From IMG/VR virus record IMGVR_UViG_2909288124_000006: a DNA stretch of 34,666 nt; one strand, written 5' to 3'. The position numbers and the translations under genes were made by a program. Shown here one piece after another: positions 14,868 through 33,310 of this stretch; the stretch's first letter is position 1, and every line of letters begins with the position of its first letter. Below the pieces are notes generated by a model that had not been told where the DNA came from, searched no databases, and saw only the letters and a list, made by a program, of their open reading frames with translations. This DNA comes from a virus (Duplodnaviria; Heunggongvirae; Uroviricota; Caudoviricetes).

Positions 14868-15318
14868 CCCACGTCACATCCTGGAATACATGCGACCAGT
14901 CGCCTTCGGAAGAGGGCAGACGGGGTTTTGGCTCCGGCAGGTGTTCTGCCTGCGGTGTGCCCTGACTGTTGCGCGTAATGCGAACGCGTTCCCGCAGGGG
15001 GAGCGTAAACAGGAGATCGGCGCTGTCATCGTCATTGATAACGGCGGAGAATTTGATGTCCTGATTACGCTCCGGATTGAGCAACAACTGTGGCTGATTT
15101 TCGGATAACCACGCCAGCAGCGGCAGCGTGAGGTCGTCCAGCTCCCCGGCGTAATCCATGACAAACATCACCATCTGATAGCGGTAAACAAACGAGGGCG
15201 TTTCTCCGGTCGTTTCAATGTTGCCGCTCTCCACGAAAATGGTGAATTTTTCCGGATTAGCCTGGCACCATCGGCATGAACGGGTCATGGCTTCACGCAG
15301 GGAATCAGTTTTCAGCAT
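14851..15318 (-). CDS. R: Tail completion protein R
   Basis: 155 aa resembling P2 gpR (MLKTDSLR..., LAWLSENQP). Confidence 0.8.
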   Translation of the reverse strand: MLKTDSLREAMTRSCRWCQANPEKFTIFVESGNIETTGETPSFVYRYQMVMFVMDYAGELDDLTLPLLAWLSENQPQLLLNPERNQDIKFSAVINDDDSADLLFTLPLRERVRITRNSQGTPQAEHLPEPKPRLPSSEGDWSHVFQDVTWDESDG

Positions 15319-15625
15319 GGTTGTTATCCTCGTTGTTCAGTCGTTGCAGCCTGCGCTGTTCCAGTAATTCAATGGCCCGTTTATCCGCGTTACAGGTTTC
15401 AAGTGCATCCAGAAGGCGGTCGCCCCATATACCGAGATTTCCCCATGTGGGAGTGTCAGGGAAGGGGGGAGGCATTACCGGTATGGTCAGCGTCTGCGGT
15501 ATAAGCCGGACTGACGGCGCTGGCCGTGGCGCGTTCTGCGTGCCTGCGCAACCTGTCAGTAAAACGAGCGTCAGGCAAAGCGTGGGCGCATTCATCTTTT
15601 GCAATATCGTTGCGTAGCTGTTCAC
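15305..15625 (-). CDS. lysC: Outer-membrane lipoprotein o-spanin (LysC/Rz1-like), starting inside lysB in another frame
   Basis: Lipobox LLTGC followed by Pro-rich region; GTG start at 15625 with SD GGAGAGG; overlaps lysB and R. Confidence 0.6.
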   Translation of the reverse strand: MNSYATILQKMNAPTLCLTLVLLTGCAGTQNAPRPAPSVRLIPQTLTIPVMPPPFPDTPTWGNLGIWGDRLLDALETCNADKRAIELLEQRRLQRLNNEDNNHAEN

Positions 15626-15863
15626 GTCTGGCCTCTCCGTCCTGATTTCGCTGTTGATTTTCCACGCGGAGTTGCGTCAGCACCTGCTGCATATCCTGTA
15701 CCCCGGCGCTGATGATATTCAGGGTGTCGGCGGTACTTTTCAGGGTGCTGGCCTGCGCTTCGTTTCTGGCGTTCTCCCGGCCAAGCGACCATGACAGACG
15801 CATGGATGTTCCCCATCCGGCAATCAGAAGGAAAGCGACACCCAGCGTGGGCCAGAGCTTCAT
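15456..15863 (-). CDS. lysB: Inner-membrane spanin (LysB/Rz-like)
   Basis: N-terminal TM helix then coiled-coil-like region; start at ATG 15863 (MKLWPTLG) overlapping endolysin stop. Confidence 0.7.
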   Translation of the reverse strand: MKLWPTLGVAFLLIAGWGTSMRLSWSLGRENARNEAQASTLKSTADTLNIISAGVQDMQQVLTQLRVENQQRNQDGEARREQLRNDIAKDECAHALPDARFTDRLRRHAERATASAVSPAYTADADHTGNASPLP

Positions 15864-16252
15864 GCCGGATAGGCTCCGTGTGGTAACTGAAAATGCGGTC
15901 CGTCTTTCAGGGTCTTCCAGTCGCCGCCCCATTCCACCGGAATATTCAGTTCCCGGCTGGCTTGTCTGAATGCTGCTGCGATTTTTTCGTACAGCGGCCA
16001 TTCCCATGACACCTGGCTGCCGATATAAGCCACAACATCCACGGCATGCCCCGTAAGGTGGCGGCTGTTCATGGTCTGGCTCTTACCCGTGGCCACCAGT
16101 TGCTTCTGGCGGTAACGGCTGCGCAACCCTTCGGTGATACCAAAATCCACTTCCGAGATTTCCAGTGCCCGTCGGGTCACTTTCACCAGATCAGGATTTA
16201 CGCCCTGCAAATTCTTTTCGCTCCGGCTGCTGAATTTAAATGTGTTGCTCAT
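15860..16252 (-). CDS. Endolysin, peptidase M15 (VanY/L-Ala-D-Glu peptidase-like) family
   Basis: 130 aa with H..D...WGGDW...HFQ motif arrangement typical of M15 peptidases. Confidence 0.8.
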   Translation of the reverse strand: MSNTFKFSSRSEKNLQGVNPDLVKVTRRALEISEVDFGITEGLRSRYRQKQLVATGKSQTMNSRHLTGHAVDVVAYIGSQVSWEWPLYEKIAAAFRQASRELNIPVEWGGDWKTLKDGPHFQLPHGAYPA

Positions 16253-16572
16253 TCGTCCTTCTCCTTCACCCTGCGATTAAAGGCCGCAATAACCTTGTCG
16301 CGTGCTTTCTCTGCCCCCATAAAACCGATTGATGCGCCGATAAACGTCACGGCATCTTCAGGAAACCCGAAGAAGCGCAACGACCCGGCCACGGCCATGG
16401 CAAGAACGCCGCACGCCAGCGATCCCGTTACGGTCTGAACCAGTGTTCGTCCGTCATAAAGACTCATCAGCGCGGAAATGCTGACCGCCGCGCCTACTGC
16501 ATACACCGTTGGCAGGTGGTCAAAGAGCCACGCAATAACCTGCTCTGTGATCCCTGTTTGAATGGTGCTCAC
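16249..16572 (-). CDS. Holin (three predicted TM helices)
   Basis: GTG start at 16572 with SD GGGGGGAG just after X stop; hydrophobic segments; lysis-cassette position; ORF-track N-terminal extension rejected. Confidence 0.6.
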   Translation of the reverse strand: MSTIQTGITEQVIAWLFDHLPTVYAVGAAVSISALMSLYDGRTLVQTVTGSLACGVLAMAVAGSLRFFGFPEDAVTFIGASIGFMGAEKARDKVIAAFNRRVKEKDE

Positions 16573-16574
16573 TG

Positions 16575-16775
16575 CTACTCCCCCCACAACTGAATCATTT
16601 CTCGTTTCTTCTTCTCCGGCTCCGGCATCTCCACTTCCTGCCCGGCGTCCAGAAATACCTGCTGACAGAGTCCGGGGTTGGCATCCAGCACCTTTTCGGT
16701 GACGCCCTGCGTCGTGCCGTAGTACCGGAAACAGAGCGAATCCACGGTGTCGCCTTCCAGTGCCTTCACTTTCAT
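16575..16775 (-). CDS. X: Tail protein X
   Basis: 66 aa from MKVKALEGDTVDSLCFRYYG resembling P2 gpX. Confidence 0.75.
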   Translation of the reverse strand: MKVKALEGDTVDSLCFRYYGTTQGVTEKVLDANPGLCQQVFLDAGQEVEMPEPEKKKREMIQLWGE

Positions 16776-17278
16776 CAGCACAATTCCGCAAAGATTCGCG
16801 GGCGACACAGAATGTCAGAGATGGCCCAGCTCACATCGCGCCACAAATCCGATGTCTGTATATCCAGTGCGTCCGCCCGGCGGTCGCCCTTGTCCGTTGT
16901 GTCCGCATCGCGGTAACGCTCCAGAATCAGGGCGCGCGTGGCGGTATAAACAGCATTGCGCCAGTGCCAGAGATTGACGCTTTCTCCGTTAATTTCGGGT
17001 GCCGGAACATCGGCCAGCGTCTGATGGCCAGCTGCCTGCTGTTCCTGCTGCCATGCTTCCAGCTCGCGGGTAACGTGTGCCACAGCCCCGGTGGCAGTAT
17101 GCAGCAGGCGGGAGGTGGTCACGCGGCCCGGCAGTCGTACCGCCAGACGCAGCTCGCGCAGCACAATATCCGGCCAGAATGCACCCGCTGAAATGCGGGT
17201 ATCGCCATCATCGGTATCGGTGATGTCGTCCTCTGCGGGTCTGGGTTCAGTTCTGGCAACCATACTCATGGGGTTCAC
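16775..17278 (-). CDS. L: Head completion/stabilisation protein L
   Basis: Synteny between M and X; size consistent with gpL. Confidence 0.7.
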   Translation of the reverse strand: MNPMSMVARTEPRPAEDDITDTDDGDTRISAGAFWPDIVLRELRLAVRLPGRVTTSRLLHTATGAVAHVTRELEAWQQEQQAAGHQTLADVPAPEINGESVNLWHWRNAVYTATRALILERYRDADTTDKGDRRADALDIQTSDLWRDVSWAISDILCRPRIFAELC

Positions 17279-24201: not shown

Positions 24202-24513
24202 TTACTCAGGAAATAACGCCCGGATATTCCCAGCCATCTGGCTGGTTATCTTAGCCACTGGTGCAGACTGTGCTTCAAACTTTTTTGAGCTGATTTGTGT
24301 CACAGGTAACATCTCATCATCAGCCCATGCGGCCAGTCGGTAAGCCTCTGCCGGATTCGTCTTCAGAAGTGCCAGCCCGGCCAGAAAAGCCACGCGTTGG
24401 CCGCTTTTGCGGGCTTCTGGTGTAAGGCTGTCCAGCCAGGCGCATGCTTCTCCTTCGTTCTTGACGGCAGCTGGCTTCAGATAGAAACTTATTCTTCTGG
24501 TTGGTGTCGTCAT
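24202..24513 (-). CDS. parR: ParR-like centromere-binding adaptor (type II partition)
   Basis: 103 aa directly downstream of parM; ...VAFLAGLALL... resembles R1 ParR region. Confidence 0.7.
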   Translation of the reverse strand: MTTPTRRISFYLKPAAVKNEGEACAWLDSLTPEARKSGQRVAFLAGLALLKTNPAEAYRLAAWADDEMLPVTQISSKKFEAQSAPVAKITSQMAGNIRALFPE

Positions 24514-24517
24514 TGGT

Positions 24518-25477
24518 TTACTCCTTGTTCATTGCGTACAGCCCATTAACCAGAGCAAATTGTGGCCCCCCGTCCGCGATGAAAGTCGCATTAACTCCGC
24601 AGGCTTCGCGGATAGCGGGTGCCACAATCTCCGCCCCGCCACCGACAACCATCACCCGCCCGTAACCCGAAAAAACCGCCAGCGCGCGGATCACGCGTTG
24701 TTTCAGTGTTTCTTCCTTTTCACGAATAACCGCCATCAGGCTGGCGTAATGCGCGTCATTGTGGATGTGCTGGCGCAGCCAGGCTTCATCATGGCGATGT
24801 TCGATAATGGTATTGGCGATGTGGTGACTGGTGCGCATACCGTTAGTGGCCATCACCGACAGTACGGCATCGGCCATAAGAGAAACGCCTACGTGTGGAT
24901 CGCAAAACAGCTGGCTGATACCTGCCAGTTGCCCCTGAACCTTTGCCACATCCAGCGTGGTTCCGCCCAAATCCACAATCAGCAGGGATTCAAACGGACT
25001 CATGTCAGCCAGAGCCTTAAAGCCAGCCGGAATGGATTCAGGCATAACCCGCACGTTACAGATAGTGAATGCTTCGCCGTTCTGGTACTCCACCGGGCGC
25101 ATAACGTTCGCTTTTTTGCGGTTGATGTTGGCCATGTCCGGCTGTGCGTTTGTGTCGAAATACTCGCTCAGTGGCAGGGTGACAACCACATCCACCTCCT
25201 GTGGCGTGATGCCTGATTTGACCAGTGCGTGATGAATGGCAATGACATTCACATCGCTGTACTGGTATTGCGTGTCGGTCGTCTGGACAAAGCGATCGCT
25301 GACCGGATCAAAACCGTAGCGCACGCCATCAAGCATGTAGTTCGCGGGCTGCGTGCCACTGAACGGCGCAGACCATTCCGACTTGAAACTGTTCGGGCTG
25401 ATGGCGTTGCGGCGTTCGCCGTTCTCAGTCCATGCCAGCTTGATGTTGGTGGAGCCGTCGTCGATACAAATTTTCAT
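24518..25477 (-). CDS. parM: ParM/StbA actin-like segregation ATPase
   Basis: 319 aa; IDDGSTNIKL, YSDVNVIAIHHAL, VMPESIPAG, DLGGTTLD motifs matching plasmid R1 ParM as remembered. Confidence 0.9.
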   Translation of the reverse strand: MKICIDDGSTNIKLAWTENGERRNAISPNSFKSEWSAPFSGTQPANYMLDGVRYGFDPVSDRFVQTTDTQYQYSDVNVIAIHHALVKSGITPQEVDVVVTLPLSEYFDTNAQPDMANINRKKANVMRPVEYQNGEAFTICNVRVMPESIPAGFKALADMSPFESLLIVDLGGTTLDVAKVQGQLAGISQLFCDPHVGVSLMADAVLSVMATNGMRTSHHIANTIIEHRHDEAWLRQHIHNDAHYASLMAVIREKEETLKQRVIRALAVFSGYGRVMVVGGGAEIVAPAIREACGVNATFIADGGPQFALVNGLYAMNKE

Positions 25478-25508: not shown

Positions 25509-25623
25509 TTTACGGGATTCTGAAATCCCGTTTTTGCCTGTTTTGTGTGCGCTTCATATATCGCGGCGCGTTTTTTGCTCATTTACGGGATTTGTGAATC
25601 CCGTTTCTGTCTGTTTTTTGTTT
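25509..25623. repeat. Two about 40-bp direct repeats, each containing an 8-bp-stem palindrome (acgggatt N4 aatcccgt) followed by a T-rich tract; parC-like centromere/operator candidate
   Basis: Copies at 25509-25547 and 25581-25623; first is 32 bp upstream of parM start, second lies in the last codons of gene A. Confidence 0.55.
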
Positions 25624-28376
25624 CCACTGGTCAGGCTACCCCGCAGCAGGTCTGCTTTGCGGTGGGCGCGTTCAGTGGTTTCACTGATTCTCTGTGCGTG
25701 CTCTGCGTCACGGATGGCGCGCAGCATGTCAGAAAGCACGGTAACGGGGGTTTTCATGGTGTTCTGGTCCTGCTGAAGTGTGGATGCCAGACGTGCGGCG
25801 GCTTCGGGGTCTGATGCCCCCAGTTGTTCCAGATAGCTGGCGACCGGGTTATGGCGGATCTCTGTGCTGCTTACGCCGTGATTACGGCTCAGGCGCTGCC
25901 AGAGCTGCGTGATTCGGCTGTCCGGGCGGGTATCCGGTTTGCGTACAATTTCAAATCCCTGCGGTGCAATGATGCTGCCGTCAACGTACAGGCTGCCGCC
26001 CCGTAACAGGTGCTGCATCTGCTGTTCACCGATATGCAGGCCGAGAGATTCGGCAGATTCCCGCCATTCTTTAGCGAGTAATTCGTGGTTATCAGGCAAA
26101 GGCCGCTGCTGTTTGCGGCTCTGTGTCCAGCTCTGCATTTCATCACTGCTGTTTTTTGCCTGTTTGTCACGAAGCGAACGCATCAGCGCCCGGCGTTCGT
26201 GCCGTTTCAGTGAGCGCATCCATTCGTTCACTTCAACGCCATCAGGGAGCTGCGGCCACGGTGCTGGCCGTTCTTCCGGCTGTTCTGTCCCGTTGTTGTT
26301 CGTTTCCTGTACACGGGGACAGTTATTGCCACGAGTCCAAGGGGCGGCAGGGCCGCCCTGAAGGTCAAAACCATTTTCGCGGGCGCTGTCTTCCGCTTCC
26401 GGTTTACGTCTTACCAGCTTCCAGTTATCCGGATGTGTGCACACACGGGAAGACTCCCCGATGAGTGGTGACCAGATCCCGTAAATCTGTACGCTCTGTT
26501 CGCCGTAATCGTTCAGCTCATCTGCGAGGTCGTAGGCGGTGCGAATCAGGTAGTCTTTGCGTGGAACAAGTACGCCGCCCTGTTTTTCAATGTAGGAGGC
26601 AAAACACCCGGCATCAGCGGCAGCGAGCACTGCATCCATTGCGTCATCCTTCAGTCGTTGCGGGCCTTCCGGGTTGCGTGCCATCTGGCTGGCAAGGCGG
26701 CGCAGTTCACGCCACACCTGACGGGAGGGGATGCCAAAGAACTGGAACTGGCGGACCCGGTGAAGGCGCGCCCAGCCGATGGCGCGCTCCACGCTCTCGG
26801 CCATTGATTTTCCGGTTTCGTGGTCAACGCGTGGCTTGCCCGTTTTCGGGTCGATACCATCCACGGCGCGGCTGTCCAGGTTCTTTCCGATGTAGGTGGC
26901 GATGTAGCTGGTTGGCGTGCCTTTTGAGCCGTCGACGTACTCCGCTTTAAAACGCGGAGTTATGTCATCGCCCAGCTCGTGGCGGTCTTCCTGAATGGCA
27001 ATATCGCAGACGTGGGACACGATGGTTTCAATCTCGTCCGGATGTGCAAAGACCATCATATGCCAGTGCACAGTGCCGTCATGGTGAGGCTCCACCGTGC
27101 GGATGCCATACCAGCGAAGACCGTCGCGGTTCAGTTTTTTGCGGACCGCCGCAAAAAACGTGTTAACCAGGTAATCGCTGGAGTCGCGCATGGTGGCCCC
27201 GTTCCATTTGGGATTCGGATGACCGTTCTCTGTTGTGGCGTGGTATTTTGACGGGCAGGTGACAGTCAGAAACACCGCTTTGTCGCCACGGGCTTCGGCC
27301 AGAAGTTCCAGCCCCTTCATGGTGGCCATCATTTCTGCCTTACGGTGAACCGGGTTACTTACTCCCGCGTAATACACTGTCTCGAGATCAATCGTGAACC
27401 CGTCTTCGTTTTCCAGCATGAAACTTTTCAGGAAATCGCGTGTTTTCTCGCGCTGTGCGCGAAACTCGCTTAATGCGTCCTGGCTCAGATAGGGCGATGT
27501 TTTTCTGGAAACCAGACAGGCGGCGCGGAGTTGTTCTTCTCTCCACTCGCAACGTAACAGCCACAGTTTGCGTTTCCACCATTCCGCACAGGTCAGGCGA
27601 AGGATTGCGCCCGGCAGCAGCTCCGTGTCCGGTTCGTTCCTCCGGTCTTTGTCTGTTGTCAGTGCGTCATAATGTGGAGGCATGATGTGCAGGTGTAACG
27701 CCATGCGGGCCAGCATCTGATACGCCTTCAGCGTTACATCCATGGTCAGTTCGCCATCGGTCGCGCCAAAGCCATCGCAGAGTTTTTCGAAGGTGCTGCT
27801 GAACATCGCCGCCGTCATGGTGGCCAGCGTCTGTATCTGGTGTTTGTTGAGCTGCGGCAGGTAAAGCAAATCGTCCAGGCGTTCGCGTCCGGCAAGGGAG
27901 CGATACCCCGGTGTCAGCCAGCGTCCGTCAGTGCGATCCAGACGTTCGAATATTTTGCGCAGGGTTCCGCGTGCATAGCGTTCCGCCTGCCAGCTCTTTT
28001 TGCATTTCCGGTGATCGGCTTCCTGTTTTTTGCGCAGGAAGGAGAGGTGGCGAATAAGCGGATCGCGCAGATAGGACGGCAGCAGGCGCAGCGAGGCCAT
28101 GGCTTCATCCACCGCGCCGCGTGCCTGTTTTCTGGCGTCTCCTGCCAGTGTGATGGTTTTGTCCTGTTTTTCCTGTGCGTCCAGGCTTTTATTAATCAGG
28201 TTGCCCAGCGGCGTGGCGGAGAACGCCGCATCAGCCATTTCTTGGCGTCGCTCGTTCTCTGCCCGGTAGGCATCCAGCCAGGAGGAAAGCGCGGATTCAG
28301 GAGCGGGGATCCCCGTTCCTTCACGCCCCACTGCGTGGCGCGGTTGTTGCCAGTCCCTGATGTACTCTGCCGTCAT
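25554..28376 (-). CDS. A: Replication initiation endonuclease A (rolling-circle, P2 gpA family)
   Basis: 940 aa; VEPHHDGTVHWHMMVF and YIATYIGKN motifs typical of gpA. Confidence 0.9.
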   Translation of the reverse strand: MTAEYIRDWQQPRHAVGREGTGIPAPESALSSWLDAYRAENERRQEMADAAFSATPLGNLINKSLDAQEKQDKTITLAGDARKQARGAVDEAMASLRLLPSYLRDPLIRHLSFLRKKQEADHRKCKKSWQAERYARGTLRKIFERLDRTDGRWLTPGYRSLAGRERLDDLLYLPQLNKHQIQTLATMTAAMFSSTFEKLCDGFGATDGELTMDVTLKAYQMLARMALHLHIMPPHYDALTTDKDRRNEPDTELLPGAILRLTCAEWWKRKLWLLRCEWREEQLRAACLVSRKTSPYLSQDALSEFRAQREKTRDFLKSFMLENEDGFTIDLETVYYAGVSNPVHRKAEMMATMKGLELLAEARGDKAVFLTVTCPSKYHATTENGHPNPKWNGATMRDSSDYLVNTFFAAVRKKLNRDGLRWYGIRTVEPHHDGTVHWHMMVFAHPDEIETIVSHVCDIAIQEDRHELGDDITPRFKAEYVDGSKGTPTSYIATYIGKNLDSRAVDGIDPKTGKPRVDHETGKSMAESVERAIGWARLHRVRQFQFFGIPSRQVWRELRRLASQMARNPEGPQRLKDDAMDAVLAAADAGCFASYIEKQGGVLVPRKDYLIRTAYDLADELNDYGEQSVQIYGIWSPLIGESSRVCTHPDNWKLVRRKPEAEDSARENGFDLQGGPAAPWTRGNNCPRVQETNNNGTEQPEERPAPWPQLPDGVEVNEWMRSLKRHERRALMRSLRDKQAKNSSDEMQSWTQSRKQQRPLPDNHELLAKEWRESAESLGLHIGEQQMQHLLRGGSLYVDGSIIAPQGFEIVRKPDTRPDSRITQLWQRLSRNHGVSSTEIRHNPVASYLEQLGASDPEAAARLASTLQQDQNTMKTPVTVLSDMLRAIRDAEHAQRISETTERAHRKADLLRGSLTSGNKKQTETGFTNPVNEQKTRRDI

Positions 28377-28382
28377 AGTGAT

Positions 28383-28748
28383 TTACTTCGTCATGCCATT
28401 CAGGGTGTCGCGGCAGACGGTAGCCAGCCGCTGAATTTCCAGCACGGTGTCTTCTGTGTCGGCATGGCGATGTGTGATGCGGATGCTGTCGGCAATCACA
28501 TCGACGATTGCAGAGGATGGGCGCTGGTAAATGCCAATAACGGACGGGGTACCACCTTCAATGCGGTAAAGCCTGTAATTCCCCTCGTGGCTGTCAATCA
28601 TGTAGCGGCCATCAATAACAATCTTTCCGTCAGCGAGCTGCGGTACAGGCAGGGATTTCAGATACATGTCATAACGATCACGTACGCGAGCGGCAAGATC
28701 ACGCTCTGTGTTGAGCAGGTATTCAAGAAAGTCGTTGGCGAGAATCAT
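28383..28748 (-). CDS. Hypothetical protein (121 aa) immediately upstream of A
   Basis: ORF with tight spacing to A. Confidence 0.5.
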   Translation of the reverse strand: MILANDFLEYLLNTERDLAARVRDRYDMYLKSLPVPQLADGKIVIDGRYMIDSHEGNYRLYRIEGGTPSVIGIYQRPSSAIVDVIADSIRITHRHADTEDTVLEIQRLATVCRDTLNGMTK

Positions 28749-28820
28749 TGCGGCAATCCTCTTGTTACAGATGTGCGAAGGCCTCCCGCCGCAAGGTGCA
28801 GGAAAGGCCCGGAACAGGAA

Positions 28821-29051
28821 TTAATGGAGTTTGTTTTGCTGCTGGATGAGATCCTGAAGAGACAGGAGGTCTTCCGCCAGATAGCTGAATACAGCGGCGC
28901 AGTAGTCGGCTGAAATAGTGCTGTTGAGTCTGTGCAATGTGTTGGATTGCATGATAAAGGCGATGTGTGCAGCGCGGGTGAGTCTGCGATCGATTTCAGT
29001 CTGGATGTGACGACGCTCCGCGATAGTGCGGTGCTGTTTGCGGTTTGCCAT
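28821..29051 (-). CDS. Hypothetical basic protein (76 aa)
   Basis: ORF with SD AAGAGG; its SD lies inside a repeated motif. Confidence 0.4.
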   Translation of the reverse strand: MANRKQHRTIAERRHIQTEIDRRLTRAAHIAFIMQSNTLHRLNSTISADYCAAVFSYLAEDLLSLQDLIQQQNKLH

Positions 29052-29227
29052 GATATGTGGCCTCTTGTAGTAAGTTGTGAAAACTCACCATCCAGAGCTG
29101 CGAAACTGTGGGTGGCGAGACGTACGAGGTTCGCAGTACCGGCTACAAGAGATCCCGGCCCGACCGAAGTCGGCCCCGTACACCCCGCCATAATTCTGAC
29201 GCGAAAAAAACGTGGCAATACAGTACG

Positions 29228-29355
29228 CACAAAAAAACCGCTGGCGCGGTTGTGCGCTCTTGTAGTCAGCAGGCTGCGAAACCCGGCACCCGTTTTATGA
29301 GGTGCAGCGGAAATGTAACCTGACTGATTGCGGCATGGCAAGCGGTTTTTTTGTG
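29228..29355. repeat. Perfect 15-bp inverted repeat (cacaaaaaaaccgct / agcggtttttttgtg) separated by 98 bp
   Basis: Arms at 29228-29242 and 29341-29355. Confidence 0.6.
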
Positions 29356-29418
29356 AGAACGGCATACTAAAAAATCCTGATACTGCTCCGGCCAGCGGTT
29401 TTCACTGGCCGGGTTTAA

Positions 29419-30249
29419 TTACTTCACCGGAACAAACGGAACAGCGGTGTTACTGGTCATGTATTGCGGTAGCGTGCCGTTCCATTTGTTAATCGCTTCC
29501 AGCTCCATAACGCCGGGATTCTGGCGCAGAGCTTCACCGCGTAAACGAATGGCGTCGGCTTCAGCCTGGGCTTTTGTGCGAATGGCATCGGCCTGTCCGG
29601 CTGCTTCTGCGCGTAGCATGTTGGCTTCTGCTTCGCGCTGCTTGACTTCCTGTTCGCGTTGCAGGGTTTTCTGGTTTGCCGTGACTTTGGCGTTAATGCT
29701 GTCGATAACGGTTGGCGGATATTCCGGTTTACCGACATAAGAGAGGCTCATGACCTGAATGCCGATGGGGGTCATCTCTTCCTGAATATCTTTAAGTGCT
29801 GAATCCAGCAGTTCAGACTTACCACCGTCGATAAACTTATCGGTGGTCATTTTGCTGGCCAGTCGGTTGAGTGCATCGGCGATCTTCTGGCGCAGGTCAG
29901 TGTCGGTAATGTCATCCACGCCTTTGCGGTAGGTCTGAAACACTGTAGTAACTTTGGATGGATCAACCTTGTAGGCCACACCGATGTGATAGCCGATGGT
30001 TGTGCCGTCACTCATCTGGAAGCTGAACGGCTCATCGTAGGTCTTCATTTGTTTGAAGGTCGGGAAGATGTAAACCTCGGTATTCCAGCCAGTCCAGTAG
30101 CGGCCAACGCCAACCACTTCGCCGACGCCTTTGTCGTCGCCCAGTTTGTTGACTTTGATGCCCACATTACCTGGCTCAACGCGATCGCAACCAACCAGCA
30201 GGATGGCGGCAAAAAGCGGGAGAATCTGAAAGAGTTTGAATTTCTTCAT
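29419..30249 (-). CDS. SPFH/band-7 domain lipoprotein (lipobox LLVGC with Asp at +2, predicted inner-membrane retention)
   Basis: 276 aa; SPFH-like N-terminal domain then Ala/Glu/Gln-rich coiled-coil; hairpin downstream at about 29383-29408. Confidence 0.8.
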   Translation of the reverse strand: MKKFKLFQILPLFAAILLVGCDRVEPGNVGIKVNKLGDDKGVGEVVGVGRYWTGWNTEVYIFPTFKQMKTYDEPFSFQMSDGTTIGYHIGVAYKVDPSKVTTVFQTYRKGVDDITDTDLRQKIADALNRLASKMTTDKFIDGGKSELLDSALKDIQEEMTPIGIQVMSLSYVGKPEYPPTVIDSINAKVTANQKTLQREQEVKQREAEANMLRAEAAGQADAIRTKAQAEADAIRLRGEALRQNPGVMELEAINKWNGTLPQYMTSNTAVPFVPVK

Positions 30250-30449
30250 TGTTTGATTTCCTTGATGTACTTACTGAAAAGGCGAACAACGCCTGCCGGG
30301 TACAGCATGGCAATAAAAATGCCCAGCAATACCAGGAAGGAGCTGTCTGATGAAATCATTCGGGGGAGTAGTCCTGCATACAGAATGAGAGAGACGAGGA
30401 CGCATACCAGCGCCCACATGTATGCGCGAAACCAGGTCTTTTTGTTCAT
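30246..30449 (-). CDS. Small two-TM membrane protein, translationally coupled (ATGA) to the SPFH gene
   Basis: 67 aa, two hydrophobic helices; stop overlaps SPFH start. Confidence 0.6.
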   Translation of the reverse strand: MNKKTWFRAYMWALVCVLVSLILYAGLLPRMISSDSSFLVLLGIFIAMLYPAGVVRLFSKYIKEIKQ

Positions 30450-30460
30450 ATCGCGGTCCT

Positions 30461-30760
30461 TTACTGGTTAAGGAAAAAATCGAAAACGTTGTCGATGCGT
30501 TGCAGCAGCTCCTGCTGCATTGCTTCCGGCGTTTCTGATTCACCTGGTGACTCCAGCGTCGCGCAAAAATCCTTGATTTCATGATGGAGTGTCAGACGAA
30601 TGGCAGGAGCCATGGTTCTGGCGTGCTCCAGCTCATCCAGCAGTGCCAGCACGGCAGATGGCGAGAGCATTGCGCGAAACGCCAGTAATTTTTGATGCGT
30701 TGCCATTCGTTGCAGGTCAGTCGCCAGTTCGCGTAGTTCCTGGTGGTTGATGGTGCTCAT
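30461..30760 (-). CDS. Hypothetical protein (99 aa)
   Basis: ORF in early operon, overlaps upstream gene stop. Confidence 0.5.
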   Translation of the reverse strand: MSTINHQELRELATDLQRMATHQKLLAFRAMLSPSAVLALLDELEHARTMAPAIRLTLHHEIKDFCATLESPGESETPEAMQQELLQRIDNVFDFFLNQ

Positions 30761-31002
30761 GCTCTGGCTTCCTTCAGTAGCTGGTTAAACAAGTGAGTAA
30801 GCGGGTTGCCACACCCGAACTGCATCGGGTTTACCTGGTAAGAAAAGCGACCACCTGTTTTGCGCTCTTTTCTTATGACTGAACCGCTGCGCCAGAGTCG
30901 GCGTAACTCCGCATTAATGGCTGTGGTTGGGGTATTCAGTGCTGCGGCGATTTCTCCACCGCTACAACCCGGATTGGCGGCGATGTAGTCCAGAATGGTC
31001 AT
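30757..31002 (-). CDS. Small winged-helix-like DNA-binding protein (81 aa)
   Basis: ILDYIAANPGCSGGEIAAALN... resembles HTH; assignment tentative. Confidence 0.45.
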   Translation of the reverse strand: MTILDYIAANPGCSGGEIAAALNTPTTAINAELRRLWRSGSVIRKERKTGGRFSYQVNPMQFGCGNPLTHLFNQLLKEARA

Positions 31003-31202
31003 CTGCGTGACTCCTGTACCAGTCTGATAAGATTCACCTGCACCACGTTGGTGGCGCAGAAGTAAGTGTCGTCAGTGAGATAAATGTGATGCGCGTCAGG
31101 TTGCGAACGGTGACGGTCGATCGTTTTAATCAGCCGTTCGTCAACTTCGTATTCACGCCCTCTGGAGGTGAAACGAATGACGGAAAAACGCTTAATTGCC
31201 AT
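30999..31202 (-). CDS. Hypothetical protein (67 aa)
   Basis: ORF in early operon with overlapping stop/start. Confidence 0.45.
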   Translation of the reverse strand: MAIKRFSVIRFTSRGREYEVDERLIKTIDRHRSQPDAHHIYLTDDTYFCATNVVQVNLIRLVQESRR

Positions 31203-31225
31203 TGCGCCCCCTTTGTCCAGTAACC

Positions 31226-31636
31226 CTATGCGTTAAATACGGTGTGTTGGGCGTCATCAATGAATGCAACTTGAGAGCGCTCTATCAGGCGGAGATTTGT
31301 CAGAATCTCTGATTCCCTTATGGGGTGAGGAGTGATCAGGTATTTATCCTGTAATCCGGCGATAATGGTGTATCGCTGTAGCTCCGAGCCAATTGTGTAA
31401 ATAAGGCGTCCGGTGTTAGACAAATCCAGTCCGGTGACTGGTTGTGTTCTGAGAACCGCCAGTTCAGCATCCTGTTTTGCGATAATTTCTGCTGCTTCTG
31501 CCGTGACTCTTGCGACTATCAGTGTGTGGGTTGCGACGTCCATATGTGCATTTGCCACGGCTTTTTTCGCTACTTCGTTTTCTGTCTTTGAAATTTCTTT
31601 CAGTACTCTGATGATACCTTCTTCTTTTGCGTGCAT
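31226..31636 (-). CDS. Hypothetical protein (136 aa)
   Basis: ORF with SD ACGGAG. Confidence 0.5.
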   Translation of the reverse strand: MHAKEEGIIRVLKEISKTENEVAKKAVANAHMDVATHTLIVARVTAEAAEIIAKQDAELAVLRTQPVTGLDLSNTGRLIYTIGSELQRYTIIAGLQDKYLITPHPIRESEILTNLRLIERSQVAFIDDAQHTVFNA

Positions 31637-31726
31637 TTTTGTATCTCCGTTATTTGCGTGTGCGAATACCTCCGTTAATACGGATGGTTTTCACGCTTTC
31701 TTATTTAATTTGATGTTTTATTTGTA

Positions 31727-31843
31727 TCGTTATTCACCAGTGAAAAAGCGTTCAATCTTTTTTACTGAATGAATAATTCGCATAATCCCAATGGCGCAGG
31801 CCACCGAAATAATCAGAACAAGCCATGAGATAAATATACTCAT
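31727..31843 (-). CDS. 38-aa hydrophobic single-TM peptide (MSIFISWLVLIISVACAIGIMRIIHSVKKIERFFTGE), coupled by ATGA to upstream ORF
   Basis: Hand-translated; below ORF-track size cutoff; ATG overlaps TGA of the 81-aa ORF. Confidence 0.4.
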
Positions 31844-32085
31844 GCAATATTCCCCAGCTTATACGGTTCAATATGTTCCCCGCATTCTGCGGCACAGATC
31901 AGCTCGGAAAGTTCGTTAAGTGCATCCAGATCATCAGCGTAAAAAGCCACGTCATACAGACTCCGGATTGCCCTGGTCAATGAGTCACGGGCTGCACGTT
32001 CAGCATGAGCGCCTGATGCGCTTAAGCGAAAATAAAAACGCTCAAGTGCTTTGTTAATGAGAGTTTTATATTCTTTGCCCATCAC
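31840..32085 (-). CDS. Hypothetical protein (81 aa)
   Basis: ORF; coupled to downstream small peptide. Confidence 0.5.
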   Translation of the reverse strand: MMGKEYKTLINKALERFYFRLSASGAHAERAARDSLTRAIRSLYDVAFYADDLDALNELSELICAAECGEHIEPYKLGNIA

Positions 32086-32093
32086 AACGCCCT

Positions 32094-32372
32094 TTAATCT
32101 GCTTTCTTAATTTCAGCTTCTGAATCCATACAAATAATTTCGATATAGGGTTCATCGCTATTAGCCTGGCGCGCTTTTTCAGCTTCGTTAATGGCTTCGC
32201 GAACGGTCTGGTACGGAAGCTCCACGATCAGTTGTGCGTTGTTCGCATAAACGTGAGTAACTGCTTTTTTTTCTGCCTGGGCTACAGCATCAATAGCTGA
32301 TGCACGTAATAACAGTTCACCGCGAAAATCAATAAAACGGATAAATACACCTTGTGCATACTCTTTGGTCAT
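32094..32372 (-). CDS. Hypothetical protein (92 aa)
   Basis: ORF in early operon. Confidence 0.5.
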   Translation of the reverse strand: MTKEYAQGVFIRFIDFRGELLLRASAIDAVAQAEKKAVTHVYANNAQLIVELPYQTVREAINEAEKARQANSDEPYIEIICMDSEAEIKKAD

Positions 32373-32382
32373 AAATCACCTG

Positions 32383-32733
32383 TTATAAATCAACCTGTTT
32401 AATAAAACTTTGTCCGCGAAGCAGACGATCAACCGTGCGAAGTGCTTCGTATAATGTGAAATCCTGCCCGAACTGATTGTCGCCGCTGCTCAGTGCAAAA
32501 ATGCGGTTTCCAGTAAACGGATTGCGTGGGCATTTGTGGACCACGATTCCTGCTTTTTCAATCAGCCAGGTGTGTTCACCAATTTGTTTTACGGGATGGC
32601 CATCAGGTGTGGCGTGTGTTTCGCTCAGGCTGTAGCGAGAGTTGCTACGTGATGCACTGGTAGCGAAACGGTTAGCGTGGCGTTCCGCACCGTTGCGGAA
32701 GCGCTGCTGTGAAGAATTGCGCTGTTCCTTCAT
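32383..32733 (-). CDS. Hypothetical protein (116 aa)
   Basis: ORF in early operon. Confidence 0.5.
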   Translation of the reverse strand: MKEQRNSSQQRFRNGAERHANRFATSASRSNSRYSLSETHATPDGHPVKQIGEHTWLIEKAGIVVHKCPRNPFTGNRIFALSSGDNQFGQDFTLYEALRTVDRLLRGQSFIKQVDL

Positions 32734-32770
32734 ATCAAAATACTCCGCCTAAAATGAATTATGGTTTGAG

Positions 32771-33022
32771 TTATGCTGCTTTACCGCTGATATTTCCGTT
32801 TCGTCTGCCACTTGTTGGCTTAAACAAAAACAGACGGTTTTCCCAGTCGTGCCATTCCTGAGGTGCGTTTTCGATGAGGCGATCGCATGCTTCATCCCAC
32901 GCTTTTCTGTTGATGTAGAGTTCAGCGTTTCCGCCTGGTTTGAGAGGGTCCGCCATATACACCGCAGGTAGCTTTCCTGCTTTGGCCATGCTTACGATGG
33001 CGTCAACGGTCTTTCCGATATA
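32771..33022 (-). CDS. cox: Cox-like excisionase/early repressor (start uncertain; frame is open up to 33235)
   Basis: IGKTVDAIVSMAKAGKLPAVYMADP resembles P2 Cox IGKSTGAVRRMIDKGKLPVIDMTDP; ATG 33022 has SD AAGGA; divergent from C. Confidence 0.6.
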   Translation of the reverse strand, partial: YIGKTVDAIVSMAKAGKLPAVYMADPLKPGGNAELYINRKAWDEACDRLIENAPQEWHDWENRLFLFKPTSGRRNGNISGKAA

Positions 33023-33268
33023 CATCGCAAATCCTTCTTTTGACAGGAGATGCGAGGGATTTTCTGAAAGTCGAATCTCTTCACGTTCACGTGCTTTGCG
33101 TCCTGTTTTTTGATGCTCCCCTTCTGGCATTTCTGGCAGGTGATCGCATCGTGTTCCGCAAAGTGACTCAGGCGCGTTTTGAGTGCTTTCTTGCATCTGA
33201 TATCCTCCGCCATTGGTGCTTTTTCTAATTGGCACTAGTTGGAACCACTTAGAACATTCTTTTGCTGT

Positions 33269-33295
33269 TCATATGTGGTGTTAATCTACACATAT
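33269..33295. promoter_or_regulatory. Inverted repeat catatgtg N11 cacatatg in the cox/C intergenic switch region; operator candidate
   Basis: 8-bp perfect arms 15 bp upstream of C start; overlaps C ribosome-binding region. Confidence 0.4.
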
Positions 33296-33310
33296 GTAGG
33301 AGTTTGTCAA

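Follow-up and report, generated by a model that had tools for sequence, protein, structure and literature searches.

The window analysed here, a 34,666-nucleotide (nt) stretch of viral DNA (IMG/VR record IMGVR_UViG_2909288124_000006; Caudoviricetes), carries on its minus strand a 37-codon open reading frame (ORF) that is a protein-coding gene under purifying selection. Together with the gene directly upstream, which encodes an 80-amino-acid (aa) protein of the DUF4754 family, it forms a strictly conserved two-gene cassette in which the gene for the peptide (37–41 aa) is the distal cistron. Judged by its sequence, the window is a P88-like prophage of the genus Xuanwuvirus in the Peduoviridae (P2 family), and the cassette occurs in P88-like prophages of Escherichia, Shigella, Salmonella and Citrobacter. 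The small ORF is very probably a real, translated membrane-protein gene, and its translation is probably coupled to that of DUF4754. We tentatively propose that the peptide may act with DUF4754 at the inner membrane early in the lytic cycle.

The small gene and its annotation

Sequence reading and the ORF listing place the small ORF at 31730-31843, as 37 codons followed by a TAA stop. The original prediction had recognized this ORF but described it as 38 aa long, spanning 31727-31843; the residue string that it printed itself counts 37 letters. It was right that the TGA of the upstream ORF (31842-31840) overlaps the ATG of the small ORF (31843-31841) on the minus strand, and the sequence around this junction reads ...GCATGAGT.... 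The 81 aa ascribed to the upstream ORF hold only if it is read from a GTG at 32085, and the ATG at 32082 gives 80 aa. We place the start at the ATG because of the database annotation and a full-length Pfam DUF4754 match (positions 1-80 of 80; 181.7 bits with a cut-off of 27, 2.8e-54). The gap behind the small ORF measures 93 nt, rather than the 90 bp predicted.

The small ORF had been called unlisted, which is true of the ORF list used for the prediction but not of public records. The gene is gp07 of P88 (YP_009113050.1, 'membrane protein'), WP_000021656.1 in RefSeq ('hypothetical protein') and URC09552.1 in vB_EcoM-569R5 ('putative membrane protein'), and UniRef labels one variant of the peptide 'prophage membrane protein'. 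It is thus already annotated in databases, yet we found no family, name or literature for it. Pfam, PHROGs, NCBIfam and PADLOC contain no family for the peptide; its sole Pfam line is PET117 at E = 0.19, far under threshold, and PADLOC returns no match for the peptide, DUF4754 or the adjacent genes at E<=0.01. A literature search on DUF4754, the protein accessions and small membrane proteins of P88/P2-like phages found no paper on the gene. The two commonest peptide variants are present in at least 1000 contigs each, and the 1.6 kb around the cassette (31200-32800) is matched in 1397 of 5426 complete E. coli genomes. The GC content of the small ORF is 36%, compared with 53% for the window.

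Purifying selection on the reading frame

We compared the gene across two sets of loci. The first comprises 166 loci anchored on DUF4754, with partner identities of 44%-100%, and holds 72 unique nucleotide sequences and 55 peptide variants; the second comprises 66 loci anchored on the peptide itself. The small ORF is open in every locus of both sets (166/166 and 66/66). It starts with ATG in 165 of the 166 DUF4754-anchored loci and with GTG in the other, and the TGA/start overlap is present in all 66 peptide-anchored loci. No premature stop precedes codon 30 in the approximately 230 loci, relatives with 52-58% identity included.

Over codons 1-29 of 54 unique sequences, the Nei-Gojobori (NG86) ratio of nonsynonymous to synonymous substitution rates (dN/dS) is 0.247 in the annotated frame, as opposed to 1.28 and 1.20 in the other two frames; the value for DUF4754 is 0.166. 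Variable sites are distributed 22/8/34 over codon positions 1/2/3 (chi-square p = 3.6e-4) and synonymous codon types are in excess (p = 8.9e-4). All four synonymous codons are seen at each of Gly19, Ser13 and Ala17, and nearly all replacements in the peptide are exchanges among I, V, L, M and A. Conservation of the frame in relatives was among the checks named in the original prediction, and the frame is indeed kept under purifying selection.

An exhaustive HMMER search of 1.84 billion representatives matched only the peptide's own family. This family includes 41-aa branches (47-68% identity) that end in ...IE(S/A)LFTG(E/D)xxxK and occupy the equivalent operon slot behind an 80-aa gene, with the 4-nt overlap kept. 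The contrary view, that the ORF encodes no functional protein and is open by chance or conserved as DNA or RNA for another reason, can appeal to its brevity and AT-richness, as hydrophobic ORFs arise easily in such sequence; constraint confined to one frame (dN/dS about 0.25, compared with about 1.2-1.3), the fourfold synonymous variation, the lack of early stops and the conserved start codon and ribosome-binding-like motif (see below) speak against it, and frame-specific selection together with the 41-aa branches in a conserved operon position effectively excludes a chance ORF.

Predicted structure of the peptide

Both sequence analysis and AlphaFold2 predict the single transmembrane (TM) helix and basic tail that had been proposed (Table 1). 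Residues 3-21 have a summed Hessa dG of -2.9 kcal/mol and a mean Kyte-Doolittle hydropathy of 2.68, and the grand average of hydropathy (GRAVY) of the whole peptide is 1.25. The segment is flanked by two residues on its N-terminal side and by a stretch with four Lys/Arg on its C-terminal side; following the positive-inside rule, the peptide is therefore likely to lie in the inner membrane with its N terminus outside and its C terminus in the cytoplasm (N-out/C-in). The AlphaFold2 model is one unbroken helix from residue 2 to residue 34, with a predicted local distance difference test (pLDDT) score of 91.8.

Residues M1, S6, W7, L10, G19, I23, I24, K28, I30 and E31 are invariant across the family, and A17 and F34 are nearly so. 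Within the membrane, S13, A17 and G19 form a face of small residues. The tail motif and the invariant S6, W7 and G19 point to a specific interaction and away from nonspecific damage to the membrane. The C-terminal end varies, with 37-, 41-, 45- and 30-aa forms: a 1-nt indel in a T-run produces a frameshifted 45-aa tail in 9 of the 166 loci, and a 30-aa truncation is found in three.

The DUF4754 partner and the ATGA junction

DUF4754 is modelled by AlphaFold2 as a helical hairpin (helices 4-48 and 52-66) with an extended C-terminal tail (pLDDT 88.8) and is predicted to be soluble. Its isoelectric point is 5.3 and its C-terminal half has a net charge of -8, which is complementary to the four Lys/Arg of the peptide tail. 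A Foldseek comparison of the model with the PDB and BFVD gave only generic helical-hairpin matches, none at E<=0.001, and a sequence-profile search of the PDB gave nothing meaningful. In a scan of species-representative genomes, E. albertii and one assembly labelled Vagococcus were the only hits for DUF4754, and no deep phylogenetic spread emerged. In the latter (NZ_JBQPOM010000071.1, labelled Vagococcus sp. WN89Y; locus L004), the gene lies on a 226-kb contig and its product is 98% identical to that of E. coli. The assembly is probably contaminated or mislabelled, and a genuine transfer to a Firmicute is unlikely.

The 80-aa ORF is always found upstream of the peptide gene with the 4-nt overlap, including where partners are 31-39% identical. 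Database entries of 103-128 aa were considered as DUF4754-peptide fusions and rejected: they result from frameshifts or from reading another frame, and most come from single assemblies. In these entries (P0001, P0004, P0005, P0016, P0017, P0022, P0033 and P0037), the C-terminal parts are alternate-frame read-through of the small-gene region caused by indels.

Upstream of the overlap, within the DUF4754 gene, lies a run resembling a Shine-Dalgarno (SD) sequence. A purine-rich SD-like motif (GGGG, GGGA, GGAG or GAGG) is kept at -13..-8. It is retained despite differing partner residues at this place (LGN, IEEL, IEGE, IERA), which suggests that selection acts on translation initiation at the small gene. 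Huber et al. 2019 found strict coupling at ATGA overlaps in 13 of 14 tested pairs, five E. coli pairs included (PMC6728339), and the junction described here has the same architecture as theirs, intragenic SD-like motif included. Because ATGA overlaps are so regularly coupled, translation of the peptide is, by analogy, probably coupled to that of DUF4754 as well, in line with the dependence on the upstream gene suggested in the original prediction. The peptide would then be made by termination-reinitiation at the ATGA, aided by the GGGG(A) run, and its production would therefore be confined to the times when DUF4754 is made, early after infection or derepression, and would roughly scale with it. 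An mRNA structure masking the start codon (CAUGAG/CUCAUG pairing in the minimum-free-energy fold) was considered and rejected; the fold has a z-score of -0.69 and the pairing is broken by synonymous Ser6 variants.

The early operon and a conserved hairpin

The cassette lies in the early operon (25554-33196, minus strand). Starting at cox, the gene order on this strand is cox, DUF4761, a 92-aa phrog_3800 protein, DUF4754, the 37-aa peptide and the 93-nt gap; the gap is followed by a 136-aa gene, several small genes, the genes for a 67-aa membrane protein and for an SPFH lipoprotein, then an Ash-family gene and gpA. The C repressor and integrase genes are divergent from the operon. A promoter-like site upstream of cox is probably the early promoter Pe that would drive the pair's operon, as it is placed with respect to the C repressor and cox genes in the way seen in P2. 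Because the peptide gene is placed in this repressor-controlled early lytic operon, it is not expected to be expressed in a quiescent lysogen. ATGA junctions are found at 5 of the 13 gene boundaries of the operon (DUF4754/peptide, 67-aa gene/winged helix-turn-helix (wHTH) gene, wHTH/Ea22-like, 67-aa TM protein/SPFH and Ash/121-aa gene), and chained translational coupling thus appears, from the sequence, to be the rule in it.

Conservation of the gap downstream of the cassette extends to just past a short hairpin, and from there on different phages carry different gene modules. Of 231 loci, 229 have the hairpin itself and two have near-variants of it. Across 26 diverse sequences, its pairing is kept in 97.7% of cells, with CG->UA double changes at two stem pairs; its covariation score was reached by none of 500 shuffles, and slid controls were 38-64% paired. 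The hairpin has no U-tract on the operon strand. A conserved A-rich run upstream of it could act as a U-tract solely in an antisense transcript, and the element is called terminator-like on the plus strand. It is possible that the hairpin is a stabilizer or processing site at an mRNA 3' end, or a weak or factor-dependent terminator like tR1 of phage 186; equally possible are a block to antisense transcripts arriving from the modules downstream and a palindromic protein-binding site.

Table 1. Positions of the cassette, its sequence elements and other features of the window
Feature	Coordinates	Strand	Remarks
Small gene	31730..31843	-	Product MSIFISWLVLIISVACAIGIMRIIHSVKKIERFFTGE; from sequence; listed in the annotation of P88, of E. 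coli RefSeq and of vB_EcoM-569R5; reading frame unbroken in about 230 loci
TM segment (predicted)	31781..31837	-	Codons 3-21, IFISWLVLIISVACAIGIM; holds small-residue positions S13/A17/G19
Basic amphipathic cytoplasmic tail (predicted)	31733..31780	-	Codons 22-37, RIIHSVKKIERFFTGE; K28-x-I30-E31-x-x-F34 motif
ATGA stop/start overlap	31840..31843	-	ATGA in 165/166 loci, GTGA in 1
SD-like GGGGA	31851..31855	-	-12..-8 from ATG of small gene; within Leu-Gly-Asn codons of DUF4754
DUF4754 partner gene	31840..32082	-	80 aa; PF15946, phrog_2549; mechanical GTG start at 32085
Intergenic gap	31637..31729	-	93 nt; conserved to just past hairpin
Hairpin UCCGU-AUUA-ACGGA	31671..31684	-	5-bp stem, 4-nt loop; usually 45 nt after stop of small gene
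Promoter-like site TTGACA-16-TAGATT	33283..33310	-	Upstream of cox; 10/12 consensus match; putative Pe
136-aa gene	31226..31636	-	phrog_9338; no Pfam family
67-aa membrane protein gene	30246..30449	-	ATGA overlap with next gene
SPFH/Band-7 lipoprotein gene	29419..30249	-	PF01145, 5.7e-31
Ash-family ORF	28745..29365		Upstream of gpA
ParM/StbA and StbB genes	24202..25477	-	319 and 103 aa
Holin gene		 	Late operon, lysis cassette; PF05106 within 16249-16791
M15 endolysin gene	15860..16252		Late operon, lysis cassette
LysC gene	15305..15625		Late operon, lysis cassette

Possible function of the cassette

We suggest that the peptide is the membrane-embedded partner of the cassette rather than a free-standing poison. 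It might hold the acidic helical hairpin of DUF4754 at the cytoplasmic face of the inner membrane, might dock on a host membrane protein through its small-residue face (S13/A17/G19), or might do both. Cooperation between the peptide and DUF4754 at the membrane is a tentative proposal. The same holds for the fuller version, in which a coupled N-out/C-in partner would place DUF4754 at the inner membrane, or contact a host membrane protein, early in the lytic cycle; we regard it as possible rather than probable. For the account as a whole, comprising gene, product, coupling and suggested mechanism, our confidence falls somewhat short of even.

By its position, the cassette may serve an accessory, host-directed role in the early phase, such as host modulation or exclusion, in the slot held by fil and dhr in phage 186. 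In 186, the slot after apl and cII holds fil (a division inhibitor) and dhr (a host replication inhibitor), followed by the terminator tR1; in P2, the genes at the equivalent place are orf78 and B, and a putative terminator comes after them. The P88-type cassette has the equivalent position and is likewise followed by a conserved structured element, but is not homologous to fil, dhr, orf78 or B. It shares with the fil/dhr pair the family Peduoviridae, the location between the cox/apl switch gene and the first structured element in an intergenic gap, and the arrangement as small overlapping cistrons (fil and dhr encode 75 and 66 aa). By contrast, inspection of the translations reveals no N-terminal hydrophobic helix like that of the peptide in Fil or Dhr, and tR1 has a U-tract, which the P88-type hairpin lacks. 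BLASTP of the peptide against 186 Fil gave no alignment at E<=100, and no similarity to 186 Dhr or P2 Orf78 was seen by inspection. Homology to the C terminus of Fil was considered on the basis of a Smith-Waterman score of 29 (shuffle p 0.03-0.05) and rejected, the p values for three other members of the peptide family (P0066, P0067 and P0069) being 0.10-0.63.

A bolder version, which we consider unlikely as it stands, is that DUF4754 and the peptide are an unrecognized two-component early module targeted to the membrane. The peptide would recruit DUF4754 to the inner membrane, and the module would there shut down some process of the host, be it division, the anchoring of replication, transport or the uptake of rival-phage DNA; it would be a non-homologous functional counterpart of 186 Fil/Dhr, and the hairpin would mark where this immediate-early unit ends.

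The distances between partners and between peptides are correlated (Mantel r = 0.68, reached in 0 of 2000 permutations). Several points weigh against joint action of the two proteins and against their coupled translation. Physical linkage alone predicts such a correlation of divergence. One locus, L165, combines a partner of only 44% identity with a near-standard peptide (88%), and tight co-adaptation is therefore not required. ATGA overlaps are frequent among the junctions of the operon, and the overlap alone thus does not mark DUF4754 and the peptide as a complex. The frameshifted and truncated tails described above show that the last residues are not essential for binding, and neither structure nor sequence links DUF4754 to an informative relative. 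In addition, the small gene might be initiated independently at the SD-like motif, and the mRNA around the AUG shows no exceptional fold stability.

The main alternative is that the peptide acts alone on a protein or process of the host inner membrane and that DUF4754 is a mere neighbour; we consider this doubtful. The peptide could, for instance, block entry of the DNA of superinfecting phage during lytic growth, in the manner of T4 Imm, or inhibit a component of the divisome, a transport system or a protease, in the manner of small membrane regulators of bacteria. Most characterized bacterial membrane-spanning proteins of less than 50 aa regulate larger membrane proteins, and some small membrane regulators (among AcrZ, MgtS, MgrB, KdpF and CydX) are encoded beside, and act on, a partner. 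The peptide resembles these five in size, in its single helix and in small-residue positions suited to helix-helix packing; it differs in being phage-encoded and without homology to them, and its neighbour DUF4754 is predicted to be soluble rather than a large membrane protein. The single-pass helix with its conserved small-residue face and invariant S6, W7 and G19 would fit independent action, as would an early-operon position analogous to that of the host-directed fil and dhr, the tolerance of the L165 peptide for a very different partner, and the commonness of ATGA overlaps in this operon whatever the function. However, the peptide never occurs without an 80-aa ORF directly upstream in the approximately 230 loci, searches anchored on the peptide included, and its sequence suggests no host target. 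Moreover, the lack of expression on the lysogenic side would rule out classical prophage-mediated exclusion, although exclusion was among the functions suggested in the original prediction. T4 Imm and Sp (83 and 97 aa) are small inner-membrane proteins that are expressed early and exclude superinfecting phage. Like the peptide, they are products of phage early genes, but they are larger and without homology to it, and exclusion is only a candidate function of the peptide; superinfection-exclusion proteins of the T4 Imm/P22 SieA type share no defining sequence family.

Compared with these readings, it is quite unlikely that the peptide is a free-standing, membrane-damaging toxin (type I toxin-like or a pore former) that depolarizes or permeabilizes the inner membrane, as the 'toxin-like' label of the original prediction implied. 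The peptide is small, begins with a hydrophobic helix and ends in a basic tail, which is in keeping with such a role, and TisB, Ldr and Hok-type peptides are similar in composition. With 37 aa and a TM segment at residues 3-21, it falls within the size and hydrophobicity range of type I toxins (membrane peptides of <60 aa), and it shares one hydrophobic helix and charged ends with TisB, LdrD, Hok, ShoB, DinQ and ZorO. Those toxins, however, come with an antisense RNA, a stand-alone locus, their own promoter and a long structured 5' untranslated region (UTR), and none is homologous to the peptide, which would instead be co-translated inside a phage operon. No toxin family in Pfam, NCBIfam or PADLOC matches it, and the HMMER search recovered only its own family. 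The gene is embedded in the operon by its 4-nt overlap and has no promoter-like site of its own upstream on its strand; likewise, no structured 5' UTR is evident, the local fold not being significant. Early lytic expression of such a toxin would depolarize the cell long before assembly and lysis, to the detriment of the phage, and a conserved, specific tail motif is unexpected in a generic membrane disruptor.

Rfam detects no antisense RNA within or next to the small ORF at E<=1, and there is no conserved antisense promoter; an undescribed small-RNA antitoxin remains conceivable. A type I-like antisense RNA was considered from a weak promoter-like site on the plus strand (31588-31615) and the terminator-like hairpin, and rejected, as the predicted transcript misses the peptide ORF. 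The promoter-like site falls in the 136-aa gene, which is absent from P88. This hairpin is the only terminator-like element in antisense orientation; it lies 45 nt downstream without overlapping the ORF and would end a transcript before the ORF is reached.

Finally, modulation of lysis had also been suggested, and a role in lysis timing, as an accessory of the holin, antiholin or spanin type, is very improbable: many lysis proteins are small and have a single TM segment and a charged C terminus, as the peptide does, but it is encoded at 31.7 kb in the early operon, near cox, whereas the holin, endolysin and LysC genes form a cassette approximately 15 kb away in the late operon, and the peptide matches no holin, antiholin or spanin family in Pfam, PHROGs or NCBIfam.

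Neighbouring features of the window

The 136-aa gene between the gap and the 67-aa gene is present in many relatives of P88, and a mosaic junction lies just past the hairpin. The 67-aa membrane protein and the SPFH/Band-7 lipoprotein, whose genes overlap by ATGA (29419-30449), are a second pair of small membrane protein and partner in the early operon; PADLOC returns one weak line for this pair (PDC-M18B, E = 0.0078).

In or beside the Ash-family ORF, Rfam matches at 29108-29195 and 29231-29305 (both on the minus strand) correspond to C4 antisense RNA (RF01695, 78.5 bits) and isrK (RF01394, 66.7 bits). The P88 annotation has a 'derepression protein' near these matches. From its sequence, the region looks like a c4-like antisense immunity element of the P1/P7 type in a P2-family prophage. 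Further along the minus strand are genes for ParM/StbA (PF06406 2.6e-81 and PF21523) and StbB (PF10784 9.8e-24). This plasmid-type segregation pair could provide a plasmid-like maintenance option or could be a cargo module.

Conclusions

The small gene is a real but ordinary, uncharacterized phage gene for a small membrane protein, and the finding is a modest one. It overturns nothing, as small hydrophobic accessory proteins are expected in phage early operons, and the mechanism of this one cannot be derived from the sequence alone. The gene does provide a clean test case for the annotation of small proteins, and its product is a defined target for studying how phages of the P2 family affect the envelope of the host in the early phase of infection.

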